Position numbers and translations under genes: made by a program
Shown: piece by piece, positions 1,498 to 64,000 of the stretch
Position numbering within the stretch: position 1 is the first letter of the stretch
How the letters are laid out: every line of letters starts with the position of its first letter
The notes under the pieces: model-generated
Seen by the model: only the letters and a program-made list of their open reading frames with translations
The model's database searches: none
What the model was told of the DNA's origin: nothing
Assembly: GCA_015487635.1 (NCBI GenBank)
Contig: WFPM01000014.1
Span: forward strand, 407 to 64,406
Direction of reading: 5' to 3'
Length of the DNA: 64,000 nucleotides
Source: Rhodothermus sp.
GTDB taxonomy: Bacteria; Bacteroidota; Rhodothermia; Rhodothermales; Rhodothermaceae

Positions 1498-3309
1498 ATG
1501 GAGGACGCCATGCAGCACATGCCGGACCTTCCGTTCAGCGAGGAGCAGAAGCAGTACCTGCAGGGCTTCATGGCCGGGGTACTGCAGCGGGGCGGCCTGT
1601 CCTTCGTGGGCCAGACTGCCGACGGCCGCCTCACGCACGAGCCCGAACAGGCTGTACGCGACCTGGCCACGCCCGCGCCGACTGAGACGCTTTACGGTAC
1701 CCCGATCGACCGGCTCTGCAAGCAGGAACGGATCAAACTGGAGCTGCACCCGCTCGACATGTGGGATCGGGTGCTGGAAAACGCGGCGGCCGGCCGCTTT
1801 CCGGAAGGAGATGATGTGTTTCGCTACAAAGCGCTGGGGCTTTTCTACGTGGCGCCCGCGCAGAATGCCTTCATGCTGCGCTGCCGCATTGCCGGCGGCT
1901 TCCTCTCCAGCCGCCAGGCGCATGGACTGGCCGACCTGGCCGAACGCTACGGCGCGGGCTACTTGGACCTGACCACACGCGCCAACGTCCAGATCCGCGA
2001 GATCGGCGCCCGCGACGCGGCCAACGTGCTCATGGCATTGGCCGACCTGGGCCTGACCTCGCGCGGCGCCGGTGCCGACAACATCCGCAACATTACGGCC
2101 ACCCCCACCACCGGCTTCGACCTGCAGGAGCTCTGCGATGTGCGGCCGCTCGTTCGTTCCCTTTACTACTACATCCTGAACAGCCGCGACCTGTACAACC
2201 TGCCGCGCAAGTTCAACGTGGCTTTCGACAGCGGCGGCGTCATCACGGCAGCTGCCGACACGAACGACCTAGGATTCGTAGCCGTGCGCGTGGAGGAGGG
2301 GCACGACGTGCCGCCGGGCGTCTACTTCCGGATCGAACTGGGGGGCATCACCGGTCATGGCGCCTTTGCGCAGGACACCGGCTTCATGGTACCACCCGAG
2401 GCCTGCATCGCCACGGCGGCCGCCATCATCCGGGTCTATCTGGAAAACGGAGACCGCACCAACCGCAAAAAGGCCCGACTCAAGTATCTGCTGGAGCGCT
2501 GGGGCGTGGAACGCTTCATGGAGGCCGTGCAGGAGCGGCTAGCCTTCCCGCTCCTTCGCTTTCCACGCGAAGCCTGTGCGCCTCGTCCACCGCTACGCCC
2601 CGGCGCCCACATCGGTATCCATCCGCAACGCCCCGAGGGCCATTACTACGTGGGCGTCGATGTACCGGTGGGTCGCCTGCAGGCCGCGCAACTCCATGGC
2701 CTGGCCGATCTGGCCGAACGCTATGGCGTGGGCGAGTTGCGGCTAACGGTCTTCCAGAACCTGCTGATCCCCGGAGTGGCCGAGGCCGATCTGGAGCCGC
2801 TGTGTGCGGCCCTGCGCGAACTGGGTCTCTCGCACGAAAGCACGCCGCTGCGCCAGGGACTGGTGGCCTGCACAGGCAACGCCGGCTGCCCCTATGCCCG
2901 CACCAACACGAAGGCGCACGCGCTGGCGCTGGCCCGGTACCTGGAGGAAGCCGGCATTTCGGTGGACCGTCCGCTCAACATTCATCTGACGGGCTGTCCG
3001 CATTCATGCGCCCAGCACTACTGTGGCGACATCGGGCTGCTCGGCGTCAAGGTAAAGACCGATAGCGGCGAAACGGTGGAGGGCTACGACATCGTGCTGG
3101 GCGGCGGACTGGAGGCCGAGCAGGGCCTGGCTCGCGAAGTAGCCCGCGGCATCCCCTTCGAGGCCGTTCCGCCGCTGCTGGCGCACCTGCTGCGCATCTA
3201 CCTCCAGCAGCGCCAGGGGGACGAGTCGTTTGCCGCCTTCACCCGACGCCTCGACGCGGCCACGCTGGAAACGATCCTTGCCGAAAGCAAACCCGACGTA
3301 ACGCCATGA
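1498..3309 (+). CDS. nirA: Siroheme/4Fe-4S nitrite reductase (NirA/sulfite-reductase hemoprotein family)
   Basis: 603 aa. Cysteine cluster motifs VACTGNAGCPYA and LTGCPHSCAQHYCGDIG are characteristic of nitrite/sulfite reductase 4Fe-4S/siroheme domains. The gene sits between narK and nasA. The start could be any of the ATGs at 1498, 1510 or 1519. Confidence 0.85.
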   Translation: MEDAMQHMPDLPFSEEQKQYLQGFMAGVLQRGGLSFVGQTADGRLTHEPEQAVRDLATPAPTETLYGTPIDRLCKQERIKLELHPLDMWDRVLENAAAGRFPEGDDVFRYKALGLFYVAPAQNAFMLRCRIAGGFLSSRQAHGLADLAERYGAGYLDLTTRANVQIREIGARDAANVLMALADLGLTSRGAGADNIRNITATPTTGFDLQELCDVRPLVRSLYYYILNSRDLYNLPRKFNVAFDSGGVITAAADTNDLGFVAVRVEEGHDVPPGVYFRIELGGITGHGAFAQDTGFMVPPEACIATAAAIIRVYLENGDRTNRKKARLKYLLERWGVERFMEAVQERLAFPLLRFPREACAPRPPLRPGAHIGIHPQRPEGHYYVGVDVPVGRLQAAQLHGLADLAERYGVGELRLTVFQNLLIPGVAEADLEPLCAALRELGLSHESTPLRQGLVACTGNAGCPYARTNTKAHALALARYLEEAGISVDRPLNIHLTGCPHSCAQHYCGDIGLLGVKVKTDSGETVEGYDIVLGGGLEAEQGLAREVARGIPFEAVPPLLAHLLRIYLQQRQGDESFAAFTRRLDAATLETILAESKPDVTP

Positions 3310-3923
3310 CACCCATGGTTCCGTATATCCCGGAAAATGCCCCCTTCACGCCGGCCCAGCGGGCCTGGCTCAACGGATTCCTGGCGGGGCTGTTTTCGAC
3401 ACAACCGGTCCGCTCATCAGCCACGGTGCCCGAAACTTCGCCAGACCGTCCGGCCGTGACCATTCTGTTCGGCTCCCAGACAGGCACGGCCGAAGGGCTG
3501 GCCCGTGAGGCTGGCCGCCGCCTGAACGAGCAGGGCTTCTCGGCTACCGTCACGGGCATGGAAGCCTACGATCCGTCCCGGCTGGCCCAGGAACGCTTCC
3601 TGCTCATCATTACCAGCACCTACGGCGACGGCGACATGCCGGACAACGCCCAGACCTTCTGGGACTTTCTGTCGAGCGACCGGGCACCGGCGCTCGGCCA
3701 TGTTCAGTTCAGCGTGCTGGCCCTAGGCGACAGCAGCTATCCCCACTTCTGCGCGGCGGGCAAGGCCTTCGATGCCCGCCTGGAAGCCCTGGGCGCCCGG
3801 CGCCTGTACCCACGCGTCGATTGCGATGTGGACGTCGAAGCGCCCTTTGAACAGTGGTTTCGGGGCGTTTTACAGGCCCTCCAAACAGCAAGCGCAACCC
3901 AACCGCTTCGTCAGGCTGCCTGA
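3306..3923 (+). CDS. Stand-alone FMN flavodoxin-domain protein (CysJ N-terminal-like)
   Basis: 205 aa. Motifs TILFGSQTGTAEGLA and ITSTYGDGDMPDNA match the flavodoxin module of diflavin reductases. Its start overlaps the nirA stop by an ATGA. Confidence 0.8.
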   Translation: MTPMVPYIPENAPFTPAQRAWLNGFLAGLFSTQPVRSSATVPETSPDRPAVTILFGSQTGTAEGLAREAGRRLNEQGFSATVTGMEAYDPSRLAQERFLLIITSTYGDGDMPDNAQTFWDFLSSDRAPALGHVQFSVLALGDSSYPHFCAAGKAFDARLEALGARRLYPRVDCDVDVEAPFEQWFRGVLQALQTASATQPLRQAA

Positions 3924-57136: not shown

Positions 57137-58690
57137 ATGGCCGAGTTTGAGGAACGTCCCCGGTTGAGCATTGGCGAAGAGGAAGCGCCACCCTACCCGC
57201 TGGAAAAACTGACCGGCGGGCGCCGGCGCTCGCGTGCCCAGATTCATGCGCTACACCAGCAGGCCGGGCGCGTGCCACCTCAGGCCGTCGAGCTGGAACA
57301 GGCCGTGCTCGGCGCCATGCTCATCGAGCCGGAGGCGATCCCCCGGGCGCTGGAGATTCTGACGCCCGAGTCGTTCTATGACGGCCGCCACCAGCGCATC
57401 TTTCGAGCCATTATCCGGCTGTTCGAACAGAACCGCGGCGTCGACCTGCTGACGGTCACCGAAGAGCTGCGTCGCACGGGCGAGCTGGAGCAGGCCGGCG
57501 ACACCGTCTACCTGAGCGAGCTGACTACGCGGGTGGCCTCGGCGGCCAACGTCGAATACCACGCCCGAATCATCGCCGAGAAGGCGCTGCTGCGCCGTAT
57601 GATCGAGGTGATGACGCTGCTCATCGGTCGCGCCTACGATCCGGCCGCCGACGCCTTCGAGCTGCTCGACGAGGTGGAGGCCGAGATCTTCCGGCTGTCA
57701 GACGTGCACCTGCGCAAGGCCGCCCGCTCCATGAATGAAATCGTCAAAGAGACGCTGGAGCGGCTGGAAGCCATCCACGGCCGGCCGGGCGGCATCACGG
57801 GCGTGCCCAGCGGCTTTCACCAGCTCGATGCGCTCACGGGCGGCTGGCAACGAGGCGACCTGGTGATCATCGCTGCCCGTCCGTCCATGGGCAAGACGGC
57901 TTTTGCGCTGAGCTGTGCCCGCAACGCGGCCCTGCATCCGCACTACGGTACGGGCGTGGCCATCTTCTCGCTGGAGATGGGCGCCGAGCAACTGGCCCAG
58001 CGCCTGCTGACGGCCGAAGCCCGCGTCGATGCCCAGGCGGCCCGCACCGGACGACTGCGCGACGAGGACTGGCGCAAGCTGGCCCGTGCGGCCGGCCGCC
58101 TTTCGGATGCCCCGATCTTTATCGACGACACCCCTTCGCTCAGCGTGCTCGAACTCCGCGCCAAATGCCGCCGCCTGAAGGCCGAGCACGACATCGGGCT
58201 GGTGATCGTCGACTACTTGCAGCTCATGCAGGCCTCCCACATGCCCCGCAACGCCAACCGCGAGCAGGAAATCGCCCAGATCTCCCGCTCGCTCAAAGCA
58301 CTGGCCAAGGAGCTGAACGTGCCCGTTGTGGCCCTCTCCCAGCTCAGCCGCGCCGTCGAAACCCGCGGCGGCGACAAACGCCCCCAGCTCTCCGATCTAC
58401 GCGAAAGCGGCAGCATCGAGCAAGACGCCGACGTCGTGCTGTTTATCTATCGACCCGAGCGCTACGGGATTACGGTGGATGAAAACGGTAACTCCACCGA
58501 GGGTATCGCCGAGATCATTATCGGCAAGCAGCGCAACGGCCCGACCGGCACCGTGCGCCTGGCCTTCATCAACCAGTACGCCCGTTTCGAGAACCTGACG
58601 ATGTACCAACCGGAGCCGGAGGCTCCCCTCCCTGAGACGCCGGATGAGACCATCCTGCCTTCCGGGCCTCCCGACGAAGCGCCTTTCTGA
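57137..58690 (+). CDS. dnaB: Replicative DNA helicase DnaB
   Basis: PPQAVELEQAVLGAML in the N-domain. Walker A ARPSMGKTAFAL. IVDYLQLM and SQLSRAVE motifs. No intein-sized insertion. Confidence 0.92.
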   Translation: MAEFEERPRLSIGEEEAPPYPLEKLTGGRRRSRAQIHALHQQAGRVPPQAVELEQAVLGAMLIEPEAIPRALEILTPESFYDGRHQRIFRAIIRLFEQNRGVDLLTVTEELRRTGELEQAGDTVYLSELTTRVASAANVEYHARIIAEKALLRRMIEVMTLLIGRAYDPAADAFELLDEVEAEIFRLSDVHLRKAARSMNEIVKETLERLEAIHGRPGGITGVPSGFHQLDALTGGWQRGDLVIIAARPSMGKTAFALSCARNAALHPHYGTGVAIFSLEMGAEQLAQRLLTAEARVDAQAARTGRLRDEDWRKLARAAGRLSDAPIFIDDTPSLSVLELRAKCRRLKAEHDIGLVIVDYLQLMQASHMPRNANREQEIAQISRSLKALAKELNVPVVALSQLSRAVETRGGDKRPQLSDLRESGSIEQDADVVLFIYRPERYGITVDENGNSTEGIAEIIIGKQRNGPTGTVRLAFINQYARFENLTMYQPEPEAPLPETPDETILPSGPPDEAPF

Positions 58691-58802: not shown

Positions 58803-58997
58803 CTCTCCGCGTGGTCTTACGACCAAAGGAAGCCGCCGGATCCATCGGGCGCACGGCTAACGAGCTTTTCGTCGGCGGGTTCCATACATAGACAACGAGC
58901 TTGATAACCAGCATTGAATCTCTGTCAGGAAATCCTTTGCGCCTGCACTGGACTTTAACGCCTTATATTTCAAGAGGCAATCAACACCCTGTTTCCC

Positions 58998-60311
58998 ATG
59001 TGGCCCCTGCTGCTGTGGCTGATGCTGCTGCCGATGCCGGCTCAGACGCCCACGCCGGTGGTTTACCGACTGGCGCTGGAGGACGAGCCGATCACGCCGG
59101 CGACCGTTCGGTTCATCCGGCGCGGGTTACGCGAGGCCACGGAAAACGGGGCGGTCTGCCTCGTCATCGAAATGGACACGCCGGGCGGGCTCGTCGAGGC
59201 CACGCGTGACATTGTGCAACTTTTCCTGCGGAGTCCGATCCCGGTCGTCGTCTACGTGACGCCGCCGGGCGCGCGGGCGGCCTCGGCCGGGGTGTTCATC
59301 ACGCTGGCCGCACACGTGGCGGCCATGGCCCCGGGCACGCACATTGGCGCAGCCCACCCTGTGCAGCTCGGAGGGGGCCCGACGGCACCGCCCGACACGG
59401 CCCGCGTCGATCCCATGTCGGAGAAGATCCTGAACGATGCAGTGGCCTGGGCGCGGGCGCTGGCCCAGTACCGGGGACGCAACGCCGACTGGGCGGCACG
59501 GGCCGTGTCGGAAAGCCAGACGCTGACGGCGCAGGAGGCCGTGGCACAGCACGTCGTCGATCTGCTGGCGCCCTCGCTGGACTCGCTGCTGGTGCTGCTG
59601 GACGGCCGGAAGGTGGCGCCCGACGGCCAGACCGTGACGCTGCAGACGGCCGGGGCCACCGTGCGCACGATCGAGCGCTGGTGGGGCGAGCGCATCCTGG
59701 CAGCGCTCTCCAACCCGAACATCGCCTTCCTGCTGCTGATGCTGGGCTTCTACGGGCTGCTGTTCGAGCTCTACACGCCTGGCTGGGGCATTCCCGGCAC
59801 GCTGGGCGCTATCTTTTTGATGCTGGGCTTCTACGGCCTTTCCATCCTGCCGGTCAACTACGTCGGGCTGGCCCTGCTGGCGCTGGGCCTGGGCATGCTC
59901 GTGGCCGAAGCCTTTGTGCCCAGTTTCGGCCTGCTGACCGTAGGGGGCGTCGTGTGCCTGATTTTGGGCGGGTTGATGCTTGTGGAAAGTCCGATGGGCT
60001 TTCCGAAGGTTTCGGCTGCCCTGGTGGTGCCGGTCGCACTGGCCACGGCACTGATCGCGTTGTTTCTGCTGGGCAACATGCTGCGCATACAACGCCGGCC
60101 AGCCCGCATGGGCGATGCAACGCTGATCGGCCAGCAGGCCGTGGCGCGCGAAGACTTCACGTCGGAAGGCGACCACTTTCAAGGGTATGTTTTTATCCAT
60201 GGCGAGTGGTGGCGGGCCTGCAGTGCGGTGCCGGTGCGGGCCGGCCAGCCCGTCCGCATCGAGCGCCGGGAAGGCCTCTGTCTCTGGGTTTCACCGATTG
60301 CGTCCACCTGA
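58998..60311 (+). CDS. nfeD: NfeD-family membrane-bound ClpP-class serine protease
   Basis: 437 aa. A signal is followed by a ClpP-like domain (ASAGVFITLAAHVAAMAPGTHIGAAHPV), multiple TM helices and a C-terminal OB-like NfeD domain. It lies upstream of a stomatin gene. Confidence 0.85.
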   Translation: MWPLLLWLMLLPMPAQTPTPVVYRLALEDEPITPATVRFIRRGLREATENGAVCLVIEMDTPGGLVEATRDIVQLFLRSPIPVVVYVTPPGARAASAGVFITLAAHVAAMAPGTHIGAAHPVQLGGGPTAPPDTARVDPMSEKILNDAVAWARALAQYRGRNADWAARAVSESQTLTAQEAVAQHVVDLLAPSLDSLLVLLDGRKVAPDGQTVTLQTAGATVRTIERWWGERILAALSNPNIAFLLLMLGFYGLLFELYTPGWGIPGTLGAIFLMLGFYGLSILPVNYVGLALLALGLGMLVAEAFVPSFGLLTVGGVVCLILGGLMLVESPMGFPKVSAALVVPVALATALIALFLLGNMLRIQRRPARMGDATLIGQQAVAREDFTSEGDHFQGYVFIHGEWWRACSAVPVRAGQPVRIERREGLCLWVSPIAST

Positions 60312-60335
60312 AAACCAACCAGCGGAGGTGCGGCC

Positions 60336-61100
60336 ATGCTTTCGTCGACAGGCATCGTCATCGGGCTGATTGTGCTGTATTTCATCAGCTGCATTCGCAT
60401 TCTGTACGAGTATCAGCGCGGGGTCATCTTCCGCATGGGCCGGGTCCTCCCCGAGCCGAAGGGCCCGGGCATCGTGCTGGTGTTCTGGCCGATCGATCGT
60501 ATGGTGCGCGTCAGTCTGCGCACGTTCGTACACGACGTGCCCGAGCAGGACGTGATCACGCGCGACAACGTGTCGGTACGCGTGAACGCCGTCGTCTACT
60601 TTCGCGTGATCGACCCCATGAGGGCCGTGCTGGAGGTGGAAGATTACCGCTATGCCACCACCCAACTCTCGCAGACTTCACTGCGCAGCATCGTGGGCCA
60701 AGTAGAACTGGACGAGCTGCTGGCCGAGCGCGAAAAGATCAATCGCCGGTTGCAGGAAGTTATCGACCAGCAGTCGGATCCCTGGGGCATCAAGGTGTCG
60801 CTGGTGGAAGTCAAGCACGTGGACCTGCCTGAGCACATGAAGCGGGCCATGGCCAAGCAGGCCGAAAGCGAGCGGGAACGTCGGGCCAAGGTGATTCACG
60901 CGCAGGGCGAATTGCAGGCGGCCGAGCAACTGGCCCAGGCAGCCGCCATGCTTGAGGCGCACCCCATGGCCATGCAGATGCGCTTTCTGCAGACGCTGGT
61001 AGAAGTGGGCTCGGAGAACAACACGACGATCGTCTTCCCGATCCCGCTGGAGCTGATTCGCCCGCTACTGGAGCCGGAACAACGACGTAAACAGAGCTGA
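60336..61100 (+). CDS. SPFH/band-7 (stomatin-like) protein
   Basis: 254 aa. An N-terminal TM helix is followed by [11 protein letters not shown]...[17 protein letters not shown] and a coiled-coil with [15 protein letters not shown]. Confidence 0.88.
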
Positions 61101-61267
61101 ACACAAAAAAGTCCGGACCGATGCCGGGCCGGCGCCGCTCGTGTGAGGCTTTGCGAACCTTCAAGGACGAACTGGAGATAGAAGTGATAAGGGGCAAGGG
61201 GCACCCTCAAGAAATTAAAGTCGTTGCCTCGTGAGATTATTCTTTTGAAGATAAACCTCCTCTGAGC

Positions 61268-61333
61268 TTGACTTTTAATGTATTTCTGTGTATTATATTG
61301 TATAATATTGGACACACGAAGGAGGCAATATAG
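61268..61333 (+). promoter_or_regulatory. Near-consensus sigma70 promoter and strong Shine-Dalgarno for the nuclease-fusion gene
   Basis: TTGACT (61268-61273), a 17-nt spacer, then TATTAT (61291-61296). A second TATAAT lies at 61301-61306. GAAGGAGG at 61319-61326 ends 7 nt before the ATG at 61334. Confidence 0.6.
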
Positions 61334-62845
61334 ATGAGTGGTCGTAAATGGAAATTAAACCAAGAAGAGGAAGAGAAGATAAAAGAATATTTGTTGCACC
61401 AAGGAGGAGAAGAAAAGGAAGCAAAAAATATCTCCGAAAAATGGAGAATAAAGTTTTCCGATAGCACATTTACTTTTTATACAAGCGGTACCCTTTACAG
61501 TACTCCATCAAATTCTCAAGATCCGGCTGTGGAAGAGGTATGGGATTATATTGACTCTCTGGTTGGTTCTGTCTTTGTTCAGCCTACAAGAGAATTTTTA
61601 ATAGGATTAGATGAGACTGGAAAAGGTGAACTTGTTGGACACACTCATCTTGTGGGTGTAATTATTCCCAGCCATCTTTTTTCACAGTTAGAGAAGATAG
61701 TTTCTACGGCAGATACAAAGAAAGCACACTCTTTTGAGTATTGGGATAATATTTTCAAAAAAATTTCGCAATTCATCGGCGACGGTTTAGAGTACATAGA
61801 AGAAAAAATACCCCCTTGGCATGTGGACAGGTACAACCTTAATAAAATCATGGATGTTGTTTATCAGCGTATCTTGGCTTCATTTTTCAGAAGAGCTGGT
61901 GTTGGAAAGTGCAGAATAGTGATTGATGATTACGGCATAGGACCTACCCTTAAGCGCTTCCTTAACTTTTTAGAAAGACAGAGAGCTGAAGTTGTTATCG
62001 CCCAAAAATCAGATGATACATATTTAGAAGCAAGAGTCGCTTCTATAATTGCGAAGAGAAACAGAGAAGCGGTAATAAAAGCTATAAATGAAAACGAGGA
62101 TTACAAAATAGATGGAATTTCGATAGGTTCTGGAAATGCAGGGAATAAACAAACCTTAGAATGGCTTGAAAAATGGCATAGTTCAGGGAAAGAATGGCCA
62201 TGGTTTATAAAACGGTCTTTCTCAACAATTAGAAAAATTGAGAGACTCAGGGGGAAAGCGAAAAAAATTATTCCTCCAATTAGAGATAATCTTCTGTCAG
62301 AAGACTTTAAAAGAGAGTTAGATTTAGGAAAGTTGAATATAAGAGCTCTATCAGTAGTTTGTCCTTCATGTGGGACAACCTCTAAAGCAGTTCTTTTCAC
62401 ATCTGGAGAAAGGGGATTTACAGCGAGATGCCCGAGTTGCAGAAAACCTATTGAAGATTTGAATTTCACTTTGAGGTACTATTGTGGCTTTATTGTGCCA
62501 GACAGCAATGTGATTAATAGAGGCTTGCTGGGAAGGGATTTAGAAAAAAGTAAATTCTTTGAAGATTTTACCATTCTAATCCCTGCTGTTGTTAGATATG
62601 AATGTGACACCAAAGGTGGTAAAAAGGAGTTTGAAAGACTGGGAAGGTTTGCATCCATTAGCAGAATTAAACTTAAAGAAGTTGAAGAGTTTAATCCTTC
62701 TAAATTTCAAGAAATGACTTCGCAAGAGCGAGATGAGTTAATTATGAAGACATGTATTGAAGAAAATGCCGTCCTTCTTTCGGCTGACAATCAGGTTAAA
62801 GGGGTTGCTGTGGCAAAAAATATTTTTACTATTTTTGTACCATAG
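61334..62845 (+). CDS. Multidomain nuclease: RNase HIII-type N-terminal domain + type 2 RNase H (RNase HII-like) core + CxxC...CxxC zinc ribbon + PIN domain. I do not recognise this architecture.
   Basis: 503 aa.
- aa 37-60: WRIKFSDSTFTFYTSGTLYSTP resembles the RNase HIII N-domain (...TxYxSGKvlfQG).
- aa 90-300: IGLDETGKG, ADTKK, IVIDDYG, KSDDTYLEARVASIIAKRNRE and IGSGNAGNKQTLEWLEKW align motif-for-motif with archaeal-type RNase HII (DEAGRG, DSKK, DAxD, KADxxxxxVSAASIxAKxxRD, GSGYPSDxxTxxFL).
- aa 343-369: CPSC-x21-CPSC.
- aa 385-503: IVPDSNVI, RYECD, ERDELI and LLSADNQVKGVA fit the four acidic positions of a PIN domain. Confidence 0.8.
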   Translation: MSGRKWKLNQEEEEKIKEYLLHQGGEEKEAKNISEKWRIKFSDSTFTFYTSGTLYSTPSNSQDPAVEEVWDYIDSLVGSVFVQPTREFLIGLDETGKGELVGHTHLVGVIIPSHLFSQLEKIVSTADTKKAHSFEYWDNIFKKISQFIGDGLEYIEEKIPPWHVDRYNLNKIMDVVYQRILASFFRRAGVGKCRIVIDDYGIGPTLKRFLNFLERQRAEVVIAQKSDDTYLEARVASIIAKRNREAVIKAINENEDYKIDGISIGSGNAGNKQTLEWLEKWHSSGKEWPWFIKRSFSTIRKIERLRGKAKKIIPPIRDNLLSEDFKRELDLGKLNIRALSVVCPSCGTTSKAVLFTSGERGFTARCPSCRKPIEDLNFTLRYYCGFIVPDSNVINRGLLGRDLEKSKFFEDFTILIPAVVRYECDTKGGKKEFERLGRFASISRIKLKEVEEFNPSKFQEMTSQERDELIMKTCIEENAVLLSADNQVKGVAVAKNIFTIFVP

Positions 62846-62874: not shown

Positions 62875-63912
62875 ATGGAGGAATTTAGAAAATGTGGACT
62901 TTACATAAGGGTTTCCACTGAAAGGCAAGCTGTAGAAGGGGAATCCCTTGACGAGGAGGAAGAAAGGCTAAGGAGGTTTTGCAGGGTTAGAAACTGGAGG
63001 GTAATAAAAGTCTATAGAGAGGAAGGAAAATCCGCTAAGGATACAAACAGACCAGCATTTAAGGAGCTTTTAAGGGGTGTAGAAAATGGCTTAATAGACA
63101 CTCTCGTTGTTAAAAAGCTTGATAGACTCTCCCGCTCAATCGTTGACTTTGAGAAGATTTACAACTTCCTGCAAAACCATCATGTTGATCTTGTTTCTCT
63201 GCACGAAAACTTTGATACCACGACTGCTATCGGCAGAGCTGTAGTCAGGATAGTTATGGTGTTCGCTCAGCTTGAAAGGGAGCAGACGGCGGAGAGAACC
63301 CTTGATGTGATGGAGCACAGGGCAAGGGAAGGTTTGTGGAACGGTGGCTACCCTCCGTTAGGCTACGATTTAAAAGATGGAAAACTGATTGTTAACCCAG
63401 AAGAGGCCAGAGTCGTTAAACTTATTTTTGAGAAATACCTCGAGTTTGCCTCATATACCAGAGTTGCCAAGTGGTTGAATGAACACGGTTACAAAACAAA
63501 AGAGTTTATCAGCCGTAGAGGTAAAAAGCAGGGTGGAAGCGATTTTACTGATACCTATATAGCAAGAGTCTTAAAACATCCGGTTTACATAGGCAAAATC
63601 AAGTACAAGGGGAAGTTATACGAGGGACAGCATACCCCGATAATTGACGAAGAAACCTTCAACTTGGTTCAGGAAATCATCAAATGTAATTACAAAAGAA
63701 CCAGTAGCGTCAAAAGGCAAATTAAACACAACTTCTTGCTTGAGGGACTTTTAAAGTGTGGTGTTTGTGGTGCTTTTATGACGCCGACATGGGCCAAATC
63801 GAAGGGGAGAAGGTATTTCTATTACGAGTGCACTACCAATCAGCACAAAGGAAGGGGAACCTGTGAAGGCGGAAGCGTCAGAGCTGACCTTATAGAAAAT
63901 TTAGTTTGGTGA
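62875..63912 (+). CDS. Large serine recombinase, apparently C-terminally truncated
   Basis: Resolvase catalytic domain (YIRVSTERQ, DTLVVKKLDRLSRS). Recombinase domain (GGYPPLGYDL...EEARVVKLIFEKY). Zinc-ribbon motif (CGVCG...YYEC...C). The ORF stops at 345 aa, right after the zinc ribbon, so it has no coiled-coil/C-terminal region. Confidence 0.82.
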   Translation: MEEFRKCGLYIRVSTERQAVEGESLDEEEERLRRFCRVRNWRVIKVYREEGKSAKDTNRPAFKELLRGVENGLIDTLVVKKLDRLSRSIVDFEKIYNFLQNHHVDLVSLHENFDTTTAIGRAVVRIVMVFAQLEREQTAERTLDVMEHRAREGLWNGGYPPLGYDLKDGKLIVNPEEARVVKLIFEKYLEFASYTRVAKWLNEHGYKTKEFISRRGKKQGGSDFTDTYIARVLKHPVYIGKIKYKGKLYEGQHTPIIDEETFNLVQEIIKCNYKRTSSVKRQIKHNFLLEGLLKCGVCGAFMTPTWAKSKGRRYFYYECTTNQHKGRGTCEGGSVRADLIENLVW

Positions 63913-63916
63913 TTGC

Positions 63917-64000
63917 TCAATTCATTCCACCTTTTAGCACTTCCAGCAGTTTCTCAAACAAATCCTCCTTCCGATGATTGTACCGAAACTCCAGCTCCTT
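63917..64000 (-). mobile_element. 3' end of an IS1595-family (ISXO2-like) transposase gene, partial at the window edge
   Basis: The minus-strand translation reads KELEFRYNHRKEDLFEKLLEVLKGGMN-stop. The E-x-RYN-x-R...L...LL tail is recalled from IS1595-type DDE transposases. Only 27 codons are visible. Confidence 0.4.

Follow-up and report, generated by a model that had tools for sequence, protein, structure and literature searches.

A four-module RNase H–PIN nuclease on a tRNA-targeting recombinase element of Rhodothermus is a candidate defence gene directed at RNA:DNA hybrids

The nuclease gene and its product

The 64,000-nt stretch of Rhodothermus sp. DNA analysed here (the window; contig WFPM01000014.1 of assembly GCA_015487635.1) carries, in a low-GC islet near its right-hand end, a gene for an unusual nuclease followed by a large serine recombinase gene, and our subject is this nuclease, its family and the element that bears it. 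The gene is a 503-aa open reading frame (ORF) with an ATG start at 61334-62845 on the plus strand, exactly where an earlier description made from the letters alone (the sequence-only reading) had placed it. Its product joins four modules in a single polypeptide: after a TBP-like N-domain and a type 2 RNase H core come a Cys4 zinc ribbon and a PIN domain. Profile matches, PDB sequence matches, an AlphaFold2 model and Foldseek fully support this architecture and the intact active sites, both of which the sequence-only reading had proposed. Its residue numbers (D390, E423, D467, D485 and the rest) also proved correct in an alignment of 62 family members, to which all statements of invariance below refer, in the numbering of the window protein.

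All four modules are encoded on the plus strand. The N-domain (aa 1-85, 61334-61588) is of the RNA:DNA-hybrid-binding, RNase HIII type, with the YTSG motif at aa 49-52. An NCBIfam rnhC match spans aa 12-255, the RNase H3 structures 4py5 (Thermovibrio) and 3vn5 (Aquifex) align from aa 7, and the beta-alpha-beta4-alpha topology of the AlphaFold2 model, like the Foldseek matches, agrees with a TBP-like domain. The catalytic core follows (aa 86-305, 61589-62248). It belongs to the type 2 RNases H by its match to Pfam RNase_HII (PF01351, aa 90-298; E 6.9e-16, 59.2 bits against a cut-off of 25.8), by TIGR00729 and by family conservation, and its highest PDB sequence matches are the archaeal RNases HII 1uax and 1io2 (Pyrococcus, Thermococcus; E 1e-10). 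D93, E94, D198 and D227 make up the active site; the core also contains G96-K97-G98-E99, T128-K129 and a GSGN motif ending in N268.

A conserved linker (aa 306-340, 62249-62353), in which K311, P314, P315, F325 and G332 are invariant and the predicted local distance difference test (pLDDT) score exceeds 90, connects the core to the zinc ribbon (aa 341-372, 62354-62449). We considered a PCNA-binding PIP box in the linker and dropped it on inspection, since the candidate segment I-R-x-x-L-L-S-x-x-F lacks the paired aromatics. The ribbon has the form CPSC-x19-CPSC, with invariant C343, C346, C366 and C369 (its spacing had at first been counted as 21 residues) and a beta-hairpin at aa 352-365 in the model; several Pfam zinc-ribbon families match it weakly, over aa 332-385, below their cut-offs. 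The PIN nuclease domain (aa 385-503, 62486-62842) has D390, E423, D467 and D485 as invariant acidic residues. Pfam PIN matches aa 387-492 with E 0.004 and 18.2 bits, below its gathering threshold of 23.6, and the PIN end of NCBIfam PRK13764 matches with E 7e-6.

Built on 62 homologs, the AlphaFold2 model has high confidence over its whole length (mean pLDDT 92.2, predicted TM-score 0.85). When it was compared with the PDB by Foldseek, the best match was 4py5_A, an RNase H3 including its N-domain (E 1.4e-13, 305 columns); archaeal RNases HII matched the core with a target-normalised TM-score of about 0.78, and the C-terminus matched PIN domains of the PilT-N/Fcf1 type (3i8o, 3ix7, 5f4h and 5oql_P), 3i8o with E 4.4e-5 and a target-normalised TM-score of 0.71. 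It is through this predicted structure and through conservation, not through Pfam thresholds, that we regard the PIN domain and the zinc ribbon as established, and as modelled the C-terminal domain has a PIN fold with four conserved acidic residues. It has the fold and the acidic residues in common with the PIN domains of PilT-N-type ATPases and of Fcf1/Utp24, and differs from them in having neither an ATPase nor a KH partner and in the dedicated Cys4 ribbon that precedes it.

Conservation extends over the whole protein. Invariant residues comprise D93, E94 and D198, the G96-K97-G98-E99 motif, T128, K129 and N268, the four cysteines, and D390, E423, D467 and D485, while position 227, Asp in the window protein, is acidic throughout (34 D, 28 E). 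When close copies were compared, the ratio of nonsynonymous to synonymous substitution rates (dN/dS) was 0.08-0.12 in each module; purifying selection acts on all of them.

Substrate specificity of the RNase H core

In RNase H2 a conserved tyrosine stacks on the deoxyribose of the RNA-DNA junction. In Thermovibrio ammonificans (Ta) RNase H3, Glu84 occupies the place of this tyrosine and binds two RNA 2'-OH groups, and RNase H2 becomes hybrid-only when the tyrosine is changed (the change is worded as one to glutamine) together with P45D, at the proline after GRG (PMC4132731). In 62 of 62 family members the junction-tyrosine position is Asn268, and the motif is GKG followed by Glu99 instead of GRG with a tyrosine, so the protein does not have the hallmarks of a junction-cleaving RNase HII. 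Taken alone, its first 145 residues align with Ta-RNase H3, such that DETGKGE pairs with NEAGKGE of 4py5 and E99 stands opposite Glu84. A GXG motif followed by Glu, Asp or Ser that binds RNA 2'-OH groups, without the junction tyrosine, is characteristic of RNase HIII, as is the TBP-like N-domain that is found here by sequence alignment, Foldseek and model topology alike. Both specificity positions, E99 and N268, thus appear from the alignment to be in an RNase H3-like state in every member of the family. Given E99, N268 and the N-domain together, we predict that the enzyme would cut RNA stretches in RNA:DNA hybrids as RNase HIII does and would cut single embedded ribonucleotides poorly. The loss of the tyrosine had been proposed from the start to alter specificity; that proposal is supported, and the predicted role of E99 extends it.

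By overall sequence, on the other hand, the core appears closer to archaeal RNase HII than to RNase HIII. It scores 80 bits against the RNase HII equivalog TIGR00729, whose cut-off is 123.3, and at most 31 bits against the bacterial PRK00015 models; against the RNase HIII equivalog TIGR00716 (rnhC) it scores 40.8 bits, with a cut-off of 161.2, and its fourth active-site residue is Asp, which departs from the DEDE set. Since neither equivalog cut-off is passed, we treat the family as a separate branch and as a member of neither class. With RNase HIII (rnhC; T. ammonificans 4py5, Aquifex 3vn5, Geobacillus 2d0a) it shares a TBP-like N-domain before a type 2 RNase H fold, G-K-G-E with the Glu that contacts the RNA 2'-OH, and the absence of a junction tyrosine, and 4py5 is its best structural match. 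It differs from RNase HIII in the fourth carboxylate (Glu there, Asp in the window protein, either in the family), in that the rest of the catalytic domain, C-terminal helices included, is nearer to archaeal RNase HII, and in the added zinc ribbon and PIN domain, which occur in no described RNase HIII. RNases HII of the archaeal/eukaryotic type, which give the highest sequence matches, have the same DEDD carboxylates, DSK-like motif, helix before the GSG and C-terminal WPxF-type helices. In contrast to these enzymes, the window family has an invariant Asn for the junction tyrosine and Glu for the Pro after GKG, the window protein adds the N-domain, ribbon and PIN, and here it is not a chromosomal housekeeping gene.

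A recombinase element inserted in a tRNA gene

Between 61100 and 61250 the window passes from a GC content of about 0.65 to one of about 0.37. On the host side of the boundary (61101-61136, plus strand) lie a terminator-like hairpin, which follows a Band_7 gene, and GGCGCC, the displaced last bases of a tRNA gene. The preceding DNA, 58988-61136, is 91% identical by blastn to the element-free Rhodothermus-like sequences L115 and L128, and this similarity ends exactly at 61136; at the orthologous position, L115 and L128 continue from the Band_7 terminator into tRNA-Arg(TCT) on the opposite strand. The next segment of the window, 61137-61261 (plus strand), is the left end of the element (the attL side) and encodes a recombinase C-terminal tail, (R)SCEALRTFKDELEIEVIRGKGHPQEIKVVAS, with its stop codon at 61232-61234. 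It is 92% identical to positions 133-263 of the related element L007, where the recombinase frame runs through without interruption (...FEENFKWLRSCEAL...).

Downstream of this tail come a sigma-70-like promoter, TTGACT-17-TATTAT (61268-61296, plus strand; 10/12 matches in a promoter scan), a GGAGG ribosome-binding site at about 61321-61325 and the nuclease gene. DNA homology to loci L006, L007 and L015 begins at the -35 box (61268), and with L007 it continues through the recombinase gene. The window's large serine recombinase (62875-63912, plus strand; Resolvase, Recombinase and Zn_ribbon_recom domains in Pfam) is truncated after about codon 344, compared with 528-535 aa in intact relatives. 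It is 94% identical in amino acids to the L015 recombinase, and DNA homology stops at 63907. The interrupting DNA (63908-64000) carries a minus-strand ORF that ends at 63915-63917, reading ...KELEFRYNHRKEDLFEKLLEVLKGGMN / ...EFRYNHRKEDLFEKLLEVLKGGMN up to its stop, and we take the ending ...EFRYNHRKEDLFEKLLEVLKGGMN to resemble the C-terminus of IS1595-family transposases. The insertion is probably an insertion sequence (IS), a call that is plausible and not proven because 27 codons of its ORF are visible. Two independent assemblies break at the same insertion, L065 ending at window position 63989 and L066 at 63934. The nuclease gene is intact although the recombinase of the window has been destroyed. 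Of the context given in the sequence-only reading, the low-GC islet, the near-consensus promoter and the recombinase all stand, and the IS is the part that is left as plausible.

The ends of related elements reveal how the element is inserted. In L007 and L015 the recombinase ORF ends ...FEENFKWL/PGQD... (here and below a slash marks the crossover junction) and runs into the antisense 3' end of tRNA-Asn(GTT), which constitutes attR. The uninterrupted 3'-end copy in L007 reads ...FEENFKWL/RSCEALRTF...VVAS-stop, and the same tail occupies about 61137-61234 of the window. Because this tail is found upstream of the promoter, directly after host DNA, the attachment site must lie inside the recombinase gene, and upon integration the last ~32 codons therefore end up at the element's left end. 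In L007 (3426-3828) and L015 (4691-5093) these ~32 codons (RSCEAL...VVAS-stop) are swapped for 11 from the antisense tRNA 3' end (PGQDSNLQPxG-stop), so that the recombinase encoded by the integrated form differs in its C-terminus from that of the excised form. The attP site reads AAATGGCTCC/GCTCGTGTGAGG, and attB is the tRNA T-arm CCGGGCAGGACTCGAACCTGCAACC.

From attL and attR we predicted the empty site GCCGGCGCC/CCGGGCAGGA, and the 19-mer is present in L115 (964,602 bp) and L128. A metagenome search with the host flank alone gave no match, and the search with the predicted empty site succeeded. The islet is thus a site-specific insertion absent from sister genomes, as follows from the end of homology at 61136 and the empty site in the sisters. 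The element targets tRNA-Arg(TCT) in Rhodothermus (L115 10028-10103, L128 5497-5572) and tRNA-Asn(GTT) in low-GC hosts (L007 3753-3828); the two targets are identical over the 25-nt T-arm/acceptor segment CCGGGCAGGACTCGAACCTGCAACC, which is presumably what the recombinase reads. With a recombinase gene at one end and an identifiable empty site, it has the features of a large-serine-recombinase integrative element. It consists of the recombinase and nuclease genes, would be about 3.4 kb without the later insertion, and sits at 61136/61137 in the 3' end of the tRNA gene, with the nuclease as the sole cargo seen in the window.

Related copies vary in what accompanies the nuclease. In Thermodesulfatator autotrophicus (L015) a second cargo of the GmrSD type (DUF262/DUF1524; 1682-3391) lies between nuclease and recombinase, and in L006 an 82% identical nuclease gene stands without a recombinase. 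The L015 nuclease gene is frameshifted into two ORFs (55-579 and 612-1634). In two independent assemblies, L007 (133-599) and L015 (1-54), an inverted copy of part of the recombinase 3' region, from about codon 407 to the end and with the excised-form tail, lies ahead of the nuclease promoter. These copies give the element long inverted repeats (in L015 the contig breaks off within the repeat), which might stem from an inversion switch, a rearrangement or a second, nested copy. Elsewhere in the window, the DnaB gene (57137-58690, plus strand) encodes 517 aa, compared with 734-736 aa in R. marinus cluster-mates at 90% identity or more, and the longer alleles probably contain an intein that the window strain lacks. 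The species names among the DnaB cluster-mates, R. marinus and R. profundi, identify the host as a Rhodothermus.

Distribution of the family

At E <= 0.001 the window protein has more than 430 matches among database proteins, and of the 120 matches listed all but two truncated ones are full-length (about 500 aa). Their hosts include Kosmotoga, Thermodesulfatator, Archaeoglobi, Thermococci, Thermoproteota, Thermoplasmatales and many uncultured lineages. A scan of 185,579 species genomes (one genome per species) with two strict peptide patterns found 50 loci in about 20 phyla of bacteria and archaea. Members of the family are rare and patchily distributed, and copies in different phyla can be nearly identical; the Thermodesulfatator copy, for example, is 89% identical in amino acids to the window protein despite belonging to a different phylum. 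The sequence-only reading had named as a possible refutation that the protein might turn out to be a common housekeeping RNase H variant of low-GC thermophiles, and this distribution does not bear that out. Searches of IMG/VR, INPHARED phages, PLSDB plasmids, PHROGs and the BFVD viral structure models yielded no relatives, which leaves a phage or plasmid origin unsupported. The top viral structural match to the RNase H part in BFVD was a phage DUF3800 protein, A0A8S5M5R1, at a weak E of 1e-3, and a DUF3800 protein also lies two genes upstream of one homolog (L014 8360-9163); a distant fold relationship between DUF3800 and the RNase H part is possible.

We also considered whether the zinc ribbon and PIN domain form a swappable effector that is joined to other sensor domains, and they do not: the Pfam-matched proteins of intermediate length are truncated versions of the same architecture. 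Among 1.84 billion representatives the ribbon-PIN module occurs in 61 clusters with essentially one architecture, the listed clusters being full-length (480-520 aa) or shorter. Of the short clusters scanned, five with a Pfam match are truncated copies of the full architecture and three others have no RNase_HII match, among them the ~280-aa P0188 and P0190, which have no real Pfam match. Two full-length members at 25-27% identity retain RNase_HII.

A short sister form, about 310-320 aa long, shares the N-domain, GKGE and GSGN and lacks the zinc ribbon and the PIN domain (L046-L061, e.g. L048 10001-10963 and L053 9803-10945). It is also rare and is found in WOR-3, Acidobacteriota, Patescibacteria and Nitrososphaeria; one member (P0226) is annotated 'Ribonuclease HIII'. 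Possibly it represents a housekeeping enzyme that has gone unrecognised, RNase H3-like with a core resembling archaeal RNase HII.

Gene neighbourhoods of the homologs

Defence genes lie within two genes of the nuclease gene in at least 17 of 33 distinct long-form loci. In eight loci the coupling to an upstream methyltransferase or specificity (S) gene is as tight as a 4-nt overlap or direct abutment. A 4-nt overlap with an upstream N6-methyltransferase or S gene is seen in L008/L009, L021 (Planctomycetia), L022 (WOR-3) and L024 (Nitrospirae), and in L038 (Goldiibacteriota) the nuclease gene abuts a fused hsdM-S gene with hsdR upstream. In L027 (Odinarchaeota) it lies between hsdS and hsdR in the order hsdM-hsdS-X-hsdR, X being the nuclease gene, and in L040 (Nitrosopumilus) it precedes a type III mod-res pair. 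In Archaeoglobi it abuts (L010-13/L017) or overlaps (L019, L020) a DUF1156 methylase gene, with DUF499 and SNF2 genes following in L010-12 and L019, and in L003 (Thermoproteota) it flanks a DUF1156-DUF499-SNF2 system. Embedding in a restriction-modification (R-M) operon is thus seen in L008, L010, L019-L022, L024, L027 and L038 and not in the window, where the island is truncated.

Links to other kinds of defence genes occur as well. In L022 cas3-cas4-cas1 follow the nuclease gene, in L015 (Thermodesulfatator) the GmrSD type IV restriction enzyme is on the same element, and in L025 (Fermentithermobacillaceae) and L032 (Methanomassiliicoccales) a Peptidase_M78 + DUF4411 pair is adjacent. The whole block of L008, in which the nuclease gene rides as cargo on a Tn7-like transposon, adjoins a tnsB-tniB-tniQ set. 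The R-M-coupled members are scattered over the family in a rough neighbour-joining tree, which argues that their association with these systems arose repeatedly and independently. No conserved small partner ORF of the VapBC kind stands beside the gene, either in the window or in the homolog loci.

The DUF1156 methylase-DUF499 ATPase-SNF2 helicase combination has earlier been proposed as an R-M class (PMC3710099). It is complete in L010 (6938-19563; Archaeoglobi) and in L003 (7584-17377; Thermoproteota). In both, the SNF2 helicase is fused to NOV_C or PLD and small DUF3368/UPF0175 genes lie alongside, accompanied in L010 by EVE and HicAB genes, and in the Archaeoglobi version the nuclease gene separates the methylase gene from the ATPase gene.

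Discussion

As far as we could find, the architecture is undescribed. Pfam, NCBIfam and full-text literature searches returned no description of it, a survey of the PIN superfamily and one of TBP domains do not mention it, and PADLOC (PADLOC-DB v2.0.0) has no model for the protein, giving a noise-level mad3 match (E 0.004, 14.7 bits, 97 residues); the sequence-only reading, which knew of no named system of this kind and expected no hit, agrees with these searches. Membership of MADS was rejected: mad2 and mad5 matches on neighbouring genes reflect type I-like methyltransferase and S subunits, MADS components being homologous to those of R-M systems. The wider patterns into which the protein falls, namely PIN genes beside type I R-M genes, two-headed RNases and TBP fusions, are known. 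PIN genes coupled to type I R-M genes have been reported (PMC5499597), and fusions of a TBP-like N-domain to a HEPN RNase are known from defence contexts as two-headed RNases aimed at hybrids (PMC3710099). These RNases of the RNase LS/RnlA family (Anantharaman et al. 2013) likewise join a hybrid-binding module to a second RNase head and are predicted to act in defence against RNA in DNA-RNA duplexes. They differ in that the second head is HEPN and not PIN, in that they are toxins with a partner antitoxin, and in having no type 2 RNase H core. PrrC sits in a type IC operon as a guardian of R-M. Like PrrC (EcoprrI), RloC and PARIS, the window family places an RNase gene in R-M operons (once in the gap between hsdS and hsdR) and is also found detached. 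PrrC itself, an ABC-ATPase with an anticodon nuclease, has no sequence or fold relationship to the window protein and cuts the tRNA anticodon, whereas the predicted substrate here is an RNA:DNA hybrid or adjacent RNA.

The occurrence of homologs inside R-M operons, together with carriage on a mobile element, singles the gene out as a good candidate for a new defence against phages or plasmids, and we infer, with a probability of roughly 0.55, that the protein is a mobile, R-M-associated, two-headed defence nuclease that targets RNA:DNA hybrids. A single-gene effector against mobile elements was also the first hypothesis of the sequence-only reading, and the neighbourhoods (R-M, CRISPR, GmrSD, Tn7-like cargo) lend it strong circumstantial support. 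The N-domain and RNase H core would bind RNA:DNA hybrid stretches and, in the manner of RNase HIII, cleave their RNA strand; on incoming DNA, the candidate targets are replication primers, R-loops and intermediates of transcription or replication. The zinc ribbon and the PIN head, which are tethered to this unit, might then cut adjoining single-stranded RNA or a flap, such that the primer or R-loop RNA of the invader would be destroyed outright instead of being nicked, and replication or expression of the phage or plasmid would be blocked. The protein may act alone, as in the window, or as a second layer beside an R-M system, where it could serve as a co-effector or, like PrrC, as a guardian set free once restriction is blocked.

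Several observations weigh against this interpretation. About half of the homolog loci have no recognisable defence gene within two genes, and no R-M gene is visible in the window, where the island, broken by the insertion, runs off the window end. No antitoxin or regulator is evident, and the control of the PIN head, if it is toxic, is unexplained. In WOR-3 and Acidobacteriota the short form lies in syntenic, housekeeping-looking neighbourhoods (SecA, FMN reductase, transaldolase-PGI), and some short forms nest among long forms in the rough tree; a housekeeping origin of the RNase H half is therefore possible. The figure of 50 loci is also a lower bound, since it was obtained with two strict peptide patterns.

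Another way to view the association with R-M genes is that the protein is strictly a guardian of the PrrC kind, held inactive by the R-M complex until an anti-restriction protein unleashes suicidal or growth-arresting RNA cleavage by the PIN domain. The gene order hsdM-hsdS-X-hsdR of L027 matches prrA-prrB-prrC-prrD, the overlaps and abutments in eight loci would suit such a partnership, and PIN domains are classic toxin RNases, and an antitoxin gene is absent. This is attractive for the embedded copies and does not explain the solo ones: the window copy, L007 and L006 lack R-M genes next to them, yet all are intact and evolve under purifying selection. Nor would a simple latent toxin need substrate-sensing modules of its own (the N-domain and RNase H), and there is no homology to PrrC. 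We therefore consider a strict guardian unlikely. Still less probable is that the protein merely helps R-M, by removing R-loops or hybrids that block methyltransferase access or translocation by type I/III and SNF2 motors, thereby preventing self-restriction at unmethylated, hybrid-covered sites. The coupling to methyltransferase and specificity genes of several unrelated R-M types, and not to one nuclease partner, speaks for such a helper, as does the finding that in a B. subtilis rnhC mutant a DNA methyltransferase is kept off the nucleoid by RNA:DNA hybrids (PMC9973331). It leaves unexplained the invariant PIN active site, the solo carriage on a mini-element and the pairing with the methylation-independent type IV GmrSD, and hosts normally own housekeeping RNases H already.

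Two other explanations were weighed. The protein could be a housekeeping, RNase HIII-like variant whose built-in flap or primer nuclease serves to process Okazaki fragments or R-loops, its island location being incidental. An RNase H joined to a PIN-like 5' nuclease follows the logic of primer removal (the PCNA-FEN1-RNase H2 complex 8yjz is among the structural matches), the short form lies in conserved non-defence neighbourhoods, and some deep-branching long forms (Acidobacteriota, Nitrososphaeria) group by taxon. We nevertheless think this very unlikely, given the extreme patchiness with near-identical copies across phyla, the position of the window copy on a foreign element absent from sister Rhodothermus genomes, the repeated embedding in R-M operons, and a PIN domain of the PilT-N/Fcf1 and not the FEN type. 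Slightly lower still we would place a role in the life cycle of the element, as a primer-processing enzyme for the excised circle, a recombination directionality factor or an addiction toxin. The directionality factors of serine integrases have been recruited from unrelated enzymes, and in the window, L007 and L015 the nuclease is the first gene of a recombinase element, with homology starting at its promoter. However, a recombinase is present in 3 of 33 distinct loci, the others being in R-M operons or elsewhere; L006 has none, and in the window the recombinase is destroyed and the nuclease gene intact. Element maintenance or primer processing, the second hypothesis of the sequence-only reading, is thus not favoured, because most homologs do not lie beside any recombinase.

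Returning to a defence nuclease aimed at hybrids, a fuller version can be put forward tentatively, at somewhat less than even odds: that the family is a class of single-gene immune nucleases which sense RNA:DNA hybrids of invaders (primers or R-loops) and destroy them by coupled RNase H3-like and PIN activities, alone or wired into type I, IIG, III and DUF1156-DUF499 systems, and which spread across bacterial and archaeal phyla on a minimal tRNA-targeting serine-recombinase element.

For the RNase H superfamily, a TBP-like N-domain and GKG-E on an archaeal-HII-like core would represent a second route to RNase H3-like specificity, which bears on the origin of RNase HIII. As many homologs come from thermophiles (Rhodothermus, Thermodesulfatator, Kosmotoga, Archaeoglobus), the enzyme could also be useful as a thermostable hybrid-specific nuclease. 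The ~3.4-kb element, comprising a recombinase and one cargo gene with the att site inside the recombinase gene, offers a compact model for the spread of defence genes. To our knowledge, R-M systems cannot act on hybrids. If the proposed function is true, it would explain why an RNase gene has been wired repeatedly into mechanistically different R-M operons, and prokaryotic immunity would count RNA:DNA hybrids among the few nucleic-acid signatures that it attacks directly.

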